From Candidatus Latescibacterota bacterium (lineage in GTDB: Bacteria > Latescibacterota > UBA2968 > UBA8231), in the NCBI GenBank assembly GCA_965206595.1, contig OZ242214.1, forward strand, positions 1,394,986 through 1,458,985: DNA of 64,000 nt. Direction: 5' to 3'. Below the pieces are notes generated by a model, which did no database searches, was not told the DNA's origin, and was given only the letters and a program-made list of their open reading frames with translations. This document shows positions 39,315 through 42,602 of this stretch, piece after piece. The position numbers and the translations under genes were made by a program. The first letter of the stretch is position 1; the number at the start of each line of letters is the position of its first letter.

Positions 39315-40398
39315 TTACTTGAGCAGTGTCATGCTGCGGGTCTCGATGCCGGCAGGAGACTGCAGACGGTAGAAGTAGGTGCCGCTGGAGAGGCCGTCGC
39401 CGCTGAGCTCGACCCGGTAGGTTCCCGCCTGGCGAAAGTCGCTGACAAGGGTGCCGATGTGCTGGCCGAGGGCATTGTAGAGATTGAGCCGGACCTCTCC
39501 CGGCTGCGGGAGCGAGTACCTGATGGTAGTGGACGGGTTCCAGGGATTGGGATAGTTCTGAACCAGGTAGAAATCGGATGGCGCCCGGAGATCGCGCTTT
39601 CGGAAGCGACTACCGTCTCCACGCCCTGAACGAGGATTCCGAGGTGGTCGAGAAAGGTCCAGCCGGCCATCCAGAGATTGTCGGCGTCGAAGGCCCCGCG
39701 ATATGCGACTGCCTGGAAGAAACCGTCATCCGGGGGCGGCACGGCGCCTGACAGGGCCGGGCTGCCGGACATCGGGCGGGGGTCGAGGGCGCCGTCGTTG
39801 GTGCGGGAGATGCCGGTCAGCTGCACGGTACTGTAGCGATCGCCGAGCCCGCGGATGTAGACGTACTTCCCTTCCATTACAGTTGCGCCGGAAACGTGAG
39901 ACATGGCTTCGGCGGCATTGCCGCTGCCGGCGCGGGAGATGTCCTCGGAGCTGATCGCATCGCTTACCGCTGGCGCCTTCTGCCGTTCCTTGAGCAGCGA
40001 TGCCTCGGTGTTTCGCAGGGCGCGAACCTCGACTACCACCTCGTCGACGGCGATCGCTTCCGAGGTCAGGACGAGATCGAGGCGCAGAACCTCGCCGGCT
40101 GCGACCACTGCCTCGGTTACGGTCACGGTGTTGTAGCCGATCATCGAGCTTTCGATCTCGTAGGTGCCGGCCGGGACGTCGGGGATCCTGAAGTCCCCCT
40201 CGATTCCGGTCACCGTGCCGAACCCGGTCTCCTTGAGGTAGACGTACGCACCGACGAGGGGTCTCCCGTTTCCCCGTCGATGATGTCGCCTGCTACAATA
40301 CCGGTTTGTGCGCCCGCTTCCGAGGGCCCGGCGATGGGAAGCAGGGCGCCGAGAAGCAGTGCGCCGAATACCTGGGTCGATCTGTGATTCTGCCGCAT
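39315..40398 (-). pseudogene. Secreted CarbopepD_reg-domain protein with T9SS (Por) C-terminal sorting domain, interrupted by two frameshifts
   Basis: Signal peptide MRQNHRSTQVFGALLLGALLPIAG (GGGAGAAAA RBS) in ORF 40210..40437; CarbopepD_reg/plug-like region in ORF 39329..40213 (GIEGDFRIPDVPAGTYEI...GKYVYIRGLGDRYSTVQLTGI); a third frame ends with a type-A T9SS CTD ([37 protein letters not shown]...GTYFYRLQSPAGIETRSMTLLK, stop 39315-39317). Shifts near 40240 and 39580. Confidence 0.55.
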
Positions 40399-40592
40399 GA
40401 CGGGTGATTTTCTCCCAGGAGGTGAAGTGGATCCCACAGCTTGAGAATTGTAACCGGCAGCGATGGAGGGAGAGTTACGGAATTGTGACGATTGCGTGTC
40501 GCCAAAGCGGCTGGGTGGTTACCACAAGGACGGGCCCCGGCGATCGTAACCGGATCGCTATGAAGAGCCGGGCGCTCCCGCGGTTCAGCGAT

Positions 40593-42602
40593 TCAGTAGG
40601 TAAGCGGAAAGGAGGCTACCGCGGTATCGGTTCCGGAGTCCGCCCTCACGGTAAGGCGCAGCAGGTAAATGCCCGGGGGCAGGAGTCCGCCCGTTTTACG
40701 TCCGCGGCCGTCCCATGAAGCCCAAAAGCGGCCGCTGCCCCTGCCCGAGGTCTCCAGGTCTGCCACCCGCCTGCCCCTCAGGTCCAGGACCTCCAGGCTC
40801 ATGGGCACGTTTCCGGCAAGATTGACCAGCTCGTATTGGATTTCGAGGGCCTCGTTGACCCCGTCCCCGTCGGGAGTGAGGGCCGTGAGGGACAGTTTCT
40901 GGATCGAGCGCTTACGGGGGTTCCGGGCTCTGACGGTCAGCCCCTGCCCATCTGTCCGCGGGTCGACGTCTCCCGGGGCAATCCGATGGCGGACTTCTCT
41001 CGGCCTGGTGCTGTCGAACACCCTGCCGGAGAACAGGGTAGACGCCTGAAAGACCTCGGCGCGAAAGTCGATCTCGATCGGTTCACCGGTGAGCTGAATA
41101 TCGATGAAGGGCAGGCGCACCACGGTGTATCGGCCGTTCCAGGGTTCCACCTCGTACTCGTCGCTGCCGAGGGTTCTCGCTCCGATCCGCACCTCGTCGA
41201 CGGACGGGGCGACCGGCACGTCGAACTGAATGCTGTCAAACCCGGAGTCCTCCTCGGAGACGACGGCAAACAGTTTGTAGGTGAAGGAAGTCACCTCCCC
41301 GAAGCGGGTCTCCGGTGGGACGATTTCAGCGGTGATGAGCGAGGCTACCGGGGGTTGGGTGATTTCGAATTGGAGATAGTCCATTCTGCCGCCGGTGTTG
41401 CTGGTCGAGCGGAAATCGATGGCGAACTGCGCGAACCGGTGCGGCAGGGTGGTGGCGAGATCCAGCCGGCCTGACGCAAACTCCGCGGGAGCAGTCCAGA
41501 ATTTCCAGTTCTGGCTGTCGGGGGTGATGCCGGCCGCTTCCCCTCCTTCGAGACGTCCGTAGGCTTGACGGGTCAATTCCACCCCGCCGGCGTCGAAACG
41601 CGACCTTCGATCTCCCCGGAAAGTATTGCGCCAGTATTGGTGCGGGTCTTCGTCGGTGCCGCTGCGGGCGCTGATCCTTACACTGGCTCCGGGGGATGCT
41701 TCTCCGTTCCAGTACACGGCGTCGAGGCTTGCCCGGCCGCCCAGGTCGATTATGCCCGAGATGTAACCGGCTTCCGGGACGTACCCGTCGCCGTAGATCT
41801 CGAACTCGGCGATCTCCCACAGGTCCAACGGGGCGGTTAGCACGACCGCCTGAACCGCGCGGCCGATTTCAAGTTCGAACTCGGCACTAGTGTTCTCGAA
41901 GTCCTCGAACAGGACGTCGAATTCGAGGTGCCCGACCTGAAGCGGAAGCTCGCGCGTCGGGCCGCCGAACTTGAACCGATTCAGCAGTCCCGGCACTTCT
42001 CCCGGGCGAATGGGACTGCCCTCGGCGACACCTAGTGTCAGCTCGGGTATGAAGCGGTCGTGGGCGTGATCGGGACGGGTTCCGAAGCGGATGCGGCTGA
42101 TGTTGTAGGGATTGCCGAGATTGAAGACGAGGATCTTGTAGTCGACAACGCAGTCGCAGCCGGGATCGTACAGGGCCATGGCGTTGTAGCTGCCCGATTG
42201 CCCCTCCGAAGACCTCTTTCCCGCGGAGCCTTCGTACACGCTCGCGGGATTGCCGTCGAACAGATTGTCGATCTGGGGTTCGTTCTGCAGCCGTCCCGCG
42301 GTGGTGGAAACGCGGACGGAGCCGCCTTTGTCCCGTATCGAGGGGGTCAGGTTTTCGTCGGGAGAAACAAACACCGGGGCGATGGCGCCGTTCTCGAAAG
42401 CGATCAGTCGAGTGGAGCCGAACTCACTGGCGGCGGCCTCCTCCCATGTGATCTGGACCAGATCGACCCCTTCCGGGGCAGGAAGGTCCTGCCCGCCGAC
42501 GCGGACAATCGTCAGTGCCCCAGGGTCCCGGGATGACCACAGGAAAACCGAGAGTGCGACAATGAGTGCAGTTGCCGGGTGTTTCAACCCAACCCCGCGC
42601 AT
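40593..42602 (-). CDS. Secreted protein with discoidin-like N-terminal region and T9SS type-B/FlgD-Ig-like C-terminal domain
   Basis: Start at internal ATG 42602 (MRGVGLKHPATALIVALSVFLWSS signal peptide); DNLFDGNPASVYEG resembles F5/8 type C; C-terminus LTPDGDGVNEALEIQYEL...RFWASWDGRGRKTGGLLPPGIYLLRLTV matches gliding-motility/T9SS type-B-like domains. Confidence 0.55.
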   Translation of the reverse strand: MRGVGLKHPATALIVALSVFLWSSRDPGALTIVRVGGQDLPAPEGVDLVQITWEEAAASEFGSTRLIAFENGAIAPVFVSPDENLTPSIRDKGGSVRVSTTAGRLQNEPQIDNLFDGNPASVYEGSAGKRSSEGQSGSYNAMALYDPGCDCVVDYKILVFNLGNPYNISRIRFGTRPDHAHDRFIPELTLGVAEGSPIRPGEVPGLLNRFKFGGPTRELPLQVGHLEFDVLFEDFENTSAEFELEIGRAVQAVVLTAPLDLWEIAEFEIYGDGYVPEAGYISGIIDLGGRASLDAVYWNGEASPGASVRISARSGTDEDPHQYWRNTFRGDRRSRFDAGGVELTRQAYGRLEGGEAAGITPDSQNWKFWTAPAEFASGRLDLATTLPHRFAQFAIDFRSTSNTGGRMDYLQFEITQPPVASLITAEIVPPETRFGEVTSFTYKLFAVVSEEDSGFDSIQFDVPVAPSVDEVRIGARTLGSDEYEVEPWNGRYTVVRLPFIDIQLTGEPIEIDFRAEVFQASTLFSGRVFDSTRPREVRHRIAPGDVDPRTDGQGLTVRARNPRKRSIQKLSLTALTPDGDGVNEALEIQYELVNLAGNVPMSLEVLDLRGRRVADLETSGRGSGRFWASWDGRGRKTGGLLPPGIYLLRLTVRADSGTDTAVASFPLTY

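Follow-up and report, generated by a model that had tools for sequence, protein, structure and literature searches.

Type IX secretion-type C-terminal domains in a high-GC window of probable Latescibacterota origin: a decayed type A cargo gene and an intact gene with a related, Tyr-terminated domain

A type IX secretion system (T9SS) is accepted as a possibility in several non-Bacteroidota phyla of the Fibrobacteres-Chlorobi-Bacteroidetes (FCB) group, a list that does not include Latescibacterota (PMC11285876), and its type B cargo proteins normally depend on cognate PorP-like barrels (PMC9143113). A full-text literature search returned no paper that contains Latescibacter* together with T9SS or type IX secretion, and none that joins the FlgD Ig-like domain with the T9SS. 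Here we describe two genes, at 39315-40398 and 40593-42602 of a 64-kb stretch of bacterial DNA (the window), whose products end in domains related to the C-terminal sorting domains (CTDs) of T9SS cargo.

We consider it likely that the window derives from a high-GC (guanine plus cytosine) genome of Latescibacterota or an ally that uses T9SS-family CTDs on exported proteins, in which 39315-40398 would be the dead remnant of one such gene and 40593-42602 a live gene whose CTD would be a sister of types A and B. The original prediction held that a type A Por sorting domain closes a frameshifted gene and that a type-B-like domain closes a secreted protein, and both of the peptide strings it quoted are encoded on the minus strand within these two genes. 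Its type A assignment held up, as the last ~80 residues of 39315-40398 score 38.4 bits with TIGR04183 (cutoff 23, E 8.8e-10) and 30.7 bits with PF18962 (gathering threshold [GA] 27), and so did the frameshift, three reading frames being needed to cross the gene. For the second domain, profile searches upheld a resemblance to CHU_C and, by hhalign, to type B tags, and gave no match to the type B model TIGR04131 at E≤0.1. Thus both domain matches lie far above chance, and ‘type-B-like’ describes resemblance, not membership. The claim that the two domains are working T9SS cargo tags was not supported in that form, since the type A tag lies on a pseudogene and the second CTD falls below the type B threshold.

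The intact gene and its parts, with the evidence for each, are as follows.

40593..42602, minus strand: intact gene that encodes a secreted multi-beta-sandwich protein of 669 aa (open reading frame [ORF], homolog alignment, genome matches, ratio of nonsynonymous to synonymous substitution rates [dN/dS], AlphaFold [AF2] model)
42516..42602, minus strand: Sec signal peptide MRGVGLKHPATALIVALSVFLWSSRDPGA, with no lipobox cysteine (read from sequence; homolog alignment; N-terminal helix in the model)
41778..42335 (approximate), minus strand: discoidin/CBM32-like beta-sandwich region ending in an invariant WEIAEFEIYG (alignment columns; paralogs match PF00754 F5_F8_type_C; Foldseek)
40596..40880, minus strand: C-terminal FlgD-Ig/CHU_C-like ‘VAY-type’ CTD, LTPDGDGVNEALEI...IYLLRLTV...FPLTY, followed by the stop (Pfam, NCBIfam, hhalign, PDB profile search, model)

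This gene runs from an ATG at 42602, a start choice backed by the homolog alignment, to a stop at 40593-40595. Its dN/dS is 0.23 relative to L002, a syntenic contig of a relative with 91% nucleotide identity, and the copy in L059 is identical; judged by this comparison, the gene is live and under purifying selection. A word-index search found 36 homologs of the protein, and ~850 clusters at 50% identity were found at E≤1e-30 among 1.84 billion representatives; the family has many paralogs, mostly in metagenome-assembled genomes (MAGs) of Latescibacterota. The AF2 model, built from the family alignment, is confident, with a predicted local distance difference test score (pLDDT) of 87.5, and is all beta-sandwich after the signal helix, and the full-length model matched CBM32/discoidin modules, the galactose oxidase N-terminal domain, pilins and adhesins in Foldseek, all with low global template modelling (TM) scores. 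No catalytic domain was recognised in the 669-aa protein. Given its discoidin/CBM32-like and Ig-like beta-sandwich build, the product is probably a secreted or surface glycan-binding protein.

The window copy of this family is solitary. Elsewhere in Latescibacterota MAGs (L003-L050) the family occurs as tandem arrays of 2-6 paralogs (e.g., L004:8028-19879, L028:249-13675 and L006:6806-16442). Five neighbours recur at the arrays. A protein of ~911 aa that matches nothing in Pfam or the PDB is present in 30 loci, and another of ~332 aa, likewise without a match, in 21; a DUF6785/DUF6784 membrane protein recurs in 14 loci, an FG-GAP/ASPIC protein in 13 and a SurA-like peptidyl-prolyl isomerase in 10. 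Together, the arrays and their neighbours look like an undescribed conserved surface-protein gene cluster.

The C-terminal end of the 669-aa protein reads ...LTPDGDGVNEALEIQYEL...PPGIYLLRLTVRADSGTDTAVASFPLTY. PF13585 CHU_C matches the last ~95 residues with 22.8 bits in the full protein and 27.4 bits in isolation (GA 27), and PF13860 FlgD_ig does so with 17.2-20.4 bits, under the GA of 27. Among family CTDs, 29 of 29 match both CHU_C (best 1e-11) and FlgD_ig (best 1.2e-10, all at E≤0.01), while in NCBIfam at E≤0.1 TIGR04183 is touched by 29/29 and TIGR04131 by 26/29. Profile-profile comparison by hhalign placed the VAY-type CTD close to both described tag classes (type B, 99.1%, E 1e-18; type A, 98.9%, E 1.4e-17), and types A and B were less alike (95.6%, E 1e-8) than either was with the VAY-type CTD; the last strand lies outside every one of these alignments. 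On such profile evidence the CTD belongs to the FlgD-Ig/T9SS-CTD superfamily, and by curated criteria it is not a type B tag. A jackhmmer profile seeded with the type A tag was tried as a classifier and rejected: it drifted into VAY-type domains, which shows homology and cannot classify.

The domain has a distinctive terminus. In 123 non-redundant copies, drawn from 1.1 Mb of related loci (L001-L053 and the window), it stands at the extreme C-terminus of the protein with a conserved terminal strand, and the terminal residue is aromatic in 123 of 123 (Y in 120, F in 2 and W in 1, with VAY the commonest ending). For comparison, type A tags have Lys or Arg as their final residue, four of six Bacteroidota type B controls end in LIK, LLR or LLK, and the other two have 2-5 residues beyond the LI/LLK strand. 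The aromatic end also resembles that of outer-membrane beta-barrel signals, whose last residue is aromatic.

A sorting role for this CTD is plausible. The most serious competing explanation, which we hold to be somewhat improbable and yet deserving of real weight, is that the domain is a structural FlgD-like Ig module with no sorting role, that the protein is periplasmic or leaves the cell by another route, and that the likeness to T9SS tags reflects shared fold ancestry. Several observations count in its favour and against a sorting signal. The missing TIGR04131 match in the window CTD is one; two other VAY-type CTDs from Latescibacterota loci reach just 18.4 and 26.9 bits against a cutoff of 35, in a scan in which the Bacteroidota type B controls score 47-64 bits. 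The window CTD ends in ASFPLTY, with Tyr in place of Lys or Arg. When the family CTD profile was compared with the PDB, FlgD Ig domains came first (Pseudomonas aeruginosa FlgD, E 1.4e-9), followed by C5a-peptidase Fn3 domains and then by the PorU CTD (E 2e-3); a CTD-only model, a seven-strand sandwich, gave generic Ig/Fn3, PorU and FlgD matches in Foldseek that do not separate the hypotheses. In addition, the same domain type recurs as 13-33 internal tandem copies in four giant proteins (P0399, P0403, P0408 and P0422; 2,194-4,065 aa), an arrangement consistent with an Ig module that is simply structural. All 119 passengers of the VAY-type domain in the examined loci, which were picked through the 669-aa family, are homologous to one another, so these data do not establish the domain as a portable tag.

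Searches for the secretion machinery belong on the same side of the balance. No T9SS core gene was found in Pfam scans of the ~46 ORFs of the window. Hidden Markov models (HMMs) for PorP, PorV, PorK and SprA, whose source sequences come from the PMC7323717 supplement (nine Bacteroidota sequences for PorP), found nothing convincing in 5,798 ORFs of 59 sequences, comprising 58 related loci (1.1 Mb) and the window. A PorK-profile match in L015 was discarded as a generic match to the FGE-sulfatase domain with no GldLMN-like neighbours. No PorP/SprF was found in the ±10 kb around family members, either in the window or at 52 non-Bacteroidota family loci, and the HMM was equally blank beside genuine type B genes in L054-L057, so that this search has no positive control.

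Against the purely structural explanation stand the invariable position of the domain at the end of these 123 proteins with its conserved last strand, the TPNGDGxND motif and core that it has in common with genuine type B tags in the hhalign comparison, and the presence of genuine type A tags in the same lineage. Five Latescibacterota-titled MAG loci have intact genes with such tags (TIGR04183, 26.8-44.5 bits), as does P0155, a protein from a close relative that is described below, and this argues that the lineage has machinery to read them; from these sequences we infer a T9SS in this genome. The 669-aa product is probably exported by Sec; if the domain is a sorting signal, its VAY-type CTD would then direct outer-membrane translocation or surface retention by a T9SS-like route, with a recognition partner that would differ from the PorP/SprF proteins of Bacteroidota. 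A bolder proposal, which we regard as speculative and rather unlikely, is that the VAY-type CTD represents a fourth kind of sorting or anchoring signal within the T9SS family, specific to Latescibacterota and allied high-GC lineages of the FCB group, evolutionarily between types A and B, and served by an outer-membrane partner of its own, perhaps the ~911-aa neighbour, and not by PorV or PorP/SprF.

The other gene, 39315-40398, documents the use of a canonical tag. It runs on the minus strand from an ATG at 40398 to a stop at 39315-39317, and its parts are as follows.

39315..40398, minus strand: chimeric pseudogene to which a TonB-dependent receptor gene contributes its 5' end and a T9SS type A cargo gene its 3' end (three-frame translation; Pfam/NCBIfam; comparison with L002, L059, L060 and L061)
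40306..40398 (approximate), minus strand: Sec signal peptide of the receptor-derived part, MRQNHRSTQVFGALLLGALLPIAGPSEAGAQ (read from sequence; conserved in L002)
40258..40261, minus strand: frameshift 1, 4 C in a run that numbers 5 C in L002 (blastn to L002; the 4-C state is also in L059 and L060)
40031..40296 (approximate), minus strand: CarboxypepD_reg-like domain (frame-corrected product: PF13715, 67.4 bits; PF13620, 57.6 bits)
39825..39980, minus strand: first ~2/3 of a Plug domain, with no beta-barrel behind it (PF07715, 27.9 bits, positions 3-70 of 107; TIGR01782, positions 4-83 of 868)
39812..39824, minus strand: deletion junction, a single copy of GCAGCTGACCGGC (two blastn segments to L002 overlap on this 13-mer; same junction in L059/L060 and in protein P0039)
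39561..39811, minus strand: remnant of the end of a PF28492 beta-helix cargo gene, ISRTNDGALDPRP...AYRGAFDADNLWMAGWTF (matches the intact 553-aa ortholog P0155)
near 39586, minus strand: frameshift 2, a 1-bp deletion inside the beta-helix remnant (gap relative to L059/L060)
39318..39560, minus strand: canonical T9SS type A C-terminal sorting domain with the end SMTLLK, followed by the stop at 39315-39317 (TIGR04183, PF18962)

The CarboxypepD_reg-like domain is the typical N-terminal extension of FCB-type TonB-dependent receptors. The frame-corrected product has no match to the PF00593 beta-barrel, and it thus lacks a complete plug and barrel, because the deletion took the barrel out. At the other end, the type A tag occupies the extreme C-terminus, its last strand being RSMTLLK with a basic final residue. 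A window ORF, 39329-40213, is identical to the database protein P0064.

Comparison with relatives allows the history of this gene to be reconstructed. Relative to L002, the window lacks 425 bp, a stretch that in L002 is flanked by two copies of GCAGCTGA(C/A)CGGC; the window retains one repeat copy, at 39812-39824. Two 1-bp deletions then separate the frames, namely the C4 run against C5 in L002 and the base lost near 39586. L059 and L060, which are ~98% identical to the window here as judged by looking over the alignment, have both the junction and the C4 run, do not have the 39586 deletion, and carry a 1-bp deletion of their own at window position 39909; the counterpart in L002 is broken at still other places. 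The presence of the junction and the C4 run in these independent assemblies indicates that they are genuine mutations and not assembly errors, and by this comparative evidence 39315-40398 is a real, decaying pseudogene.

The ancestral state would have been a secreted beta-helix cargo gene with a canonical type A domain at this position, with a TonB-dependent receptor gene directly upstream in an arrangement that is itself reconstructed. A deletion between 13-bp direct repeats would have left the receptor's signal peptide, CarboxypepD_reg domain and half-plug fused to ~170 codons from the end of the cargo gene, and the frame would have been broken afterwards by 1-bp deletions. P0155 (553 aa) represents the intact form: it combines a signal peptide with PF28492 Beta_helix_4 and PF18962 Por_Secre_tail, and its gene has PhyH and PMT_2 downstream, as at the window locus. 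Signal peptide, passenger and type A tag thus lie in one frame on a single polypeptide in P0155, whereas in the window they do not. MAGs of KSB1, Balneolaceae and Rhodothermaceae contain homologs of the cargo protein (45-58% identity) under the name ‘T9SS type A sorting domain-containing protein’. In another lineage, P0044 (382 aa) is an unbroken fusion of CarboxypepD_reg, beta-helix end and tag with a junction different from that of the window, and this sequence suggests that deletions between adjacent receptor and cargo genes recur. The type A tag of the window would accordingly be a molecular fossil, a mark of usage in the lineage on a copy that could not be exported as cargo.

Could this gene nonetheless be alive, the frame breaks being errors of long-read assembly and the product a small chimeric T9SS-secreted protein composed of a signal peptide, a CarboxypepD_reg domain, a short linker and a type A tag? 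The pieces of the pseudogene have a dN/dS of 0.07-0.24, which speaks against decay; P0039 crosses the junction and enters the type A tag without a change of frame, P0044 is uninterrupted, and the names of related contigs (ctg..._11x_l, _12x_l and _14x_l) may, in our own reading, encode coverage. We nevertheless judge a live gene to be improbable, as frameshift 1 is identical in three independent assemblies, each assembly has at least one break in the pseudogene while the genes around it are intact in all of them and the others over ~20 kb of neighbouring sequence are called full-length, and the product would hold a truncated, non-functional plug. If the gene is a pseudogene, the low dN/dS of its pieces would mean that inactivation was recent relative to the split of the window from L002. 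Gene conversion from a paralog in the window was considered as a source of the low values and rejected, the receptor part having no paralog there.

The placement of the host in or near the FCB group, which was also part of the original prediction, is supported by the labels of related genomes. A search for the 669-aa family in one-genome-per-species GTDB contigs recovered 56 loci, and when taxa were counted from record titles 39 of these were Candidatus Latescibacterota/Latescibacteria and 8 Gemmatimonadota-type; the others are 1 Planctomycetota, 1 Dehalococcoidia and 1 Elusimicrobiota (L019, L039 and L058), 2 unclassified bacteria, and 4 Bacteroidota that match the family via the CTD only. 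NCBI taxonomy places Latescibacterota within its ‘FCB group’ clade. An independent gene of the window, encoding FBPase, has its best taxon-labelled matches in Handelsmanbacteria (68%) and Latescibacteria (66%); Handelsmaniibacteriota are unplaced in NCBI taxonomy, and we take them to have been merged into Latescibacterota by GTDB. Taken together, the taxon labels of homolog-bearing genomes and NCBI taxonomy support a host in Latescibacterota or a close ally, within the FCB group. The same prediction had called such tags unusual alongside very high GC content, and this was not supported: Latescibacterota-titled loci range from 48 to 69% GC (median 60%) and Gemmatimonadota-titled loci from 54 to 70%, so the 65% GC of the window is not odd and the combination with T9SS-type tags is normal for this part of the FCB group. 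That the host instead lies outside this group, as an unrelated high-GC bacterium that acquired the tagged genes horizontally, might be argued from the three outlying loci, from FBPase matches at 62-64% identity that include Nitrospirota and Thermodesulfobacteriota, and from a 64-kb window in which no rRNA, tRNA, Rfam match, ribosomal-protein gene or other marker gene was found, but it is very improbable given the preponderance of Latescibacterota and Gemmatimonadota titles, outliers that are short MAG contigs and possible binning errors, synteny of the whole neighbourhood with several long contigs of close relatives, the labels of the top FBPase matches, and tagged genes that fit the local GC and codon usage.

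Other features of the window stand apart from the two tagged genes. Beside them lie two tandem genes for ~580-aa proteins (42697-44439 and 44450-46216), in each of which ~480 residues with no Pfam match come after an N-terminal Rieske [2Fe-2S] domain, a pair that keeps the same order in L002, L059 and L060. Seven PhyH (phytanoyl-CoA dioxygenase family) paralogs are spread over the 64 kb (7888-8820, 15622-16644, 20360-21226, 37770-38561, 46264-47172, 53906-54979 and 56581-57600), together with a WelO5-like ORF of the 2-oxoglutarate oxygenase/halogenase family (18600-19424), GFO/IDH/MocA oxidoreductases, ThuA, creatininase and GH42; the set of oxygenases is unusually dense. An IS630-like insertion sequence (IS) element is present in two copies, at 47409-48581 and 12869-13884, with a DDE_3 plus helix-turn-helix transposase that is a 362-aa ORF (47493-48581) in the full copy. 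The partial copy consists of 684 bp at 99.85% identity and 337 bp at 95%, and lies directly against an ankyrin-repeat ORF (13598-15544); the near-identity of the copies suggests recent transposition. A 581-aa IS-type transposase (DDE_Tnp_1_6, DUF772; 26637-28382) adjoins the stretch of lowest GC in the window (28-30 kb, 57% GC), within which lies a 461-aa ORF (28757-30142).

The main value of these observations is as an aid to annotation and taxonomy, in that the typing of CTDs flagged an uncultured genome of the FCB group (Latescibacterota) from raw sequence. Genuine type A tags in several Latescibacterota MAGs are a small extension of the documented range of T9SS-style cargo, and the pseudogene cleanly exemplifies a deletion between short repeats and subsequent decay by frameshift. 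Were the Tyr-terminated domain family to prove a sorting signal in its own right, it would inform the question of how T9SS signals have diversified outside Bacteroidota.

The two genes can finally be set against the systems that they most resemble. Like the T9SS type A CTDs of Porphyromonas gingivalis RgpB and Flavobacterium johnsoniae cargo (TIGR04183/PF18962), the window tag begins with YPNP, contains the GxY motif and closes with the LLK strand, but it sits on a frameshifted deletion chimera, and therefore cannot act as a cargo signal, in a host that is not a member of Bacteroidota. The 5' part of the same pseudogene has the signal peptide, CarboxypepD_reg domain and plug start of TonB-dependent receptors (SusC/RagA and Xanthomonas-Caulobacter types), although its plug stops at position 70 of 107 and no beta-barrel follows; an intact TonB-dependent receptor with an N-terminal CarboxypepD_reg is encoded elsewhere in the window (30566-32770).

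The VAY-type CTD shares with T9SS type B CTDs (TIGR04131/CHU_C; SprB, PG1035) the (T/S)PNGDGxN(D/E) motif, the WDG...G..PPGxY core, the C-terminal position and CHU_C as its best Pfam match. It departs from them in a last strand that ends V-A-Y or PLTY and not LI(K/R), in scores under the TIGR04131 cutoff, and in being mainly restricted to Latescibacterota- and Gemmatimonadota-labelled MAGs. Its fold is similar to that of the FlgD Ig-like domain (PF13860; TM ~0.58), yet it occurs outside any flagellar context, as the C-terminal module of discoidin-domain proteins that bear signal peptides.

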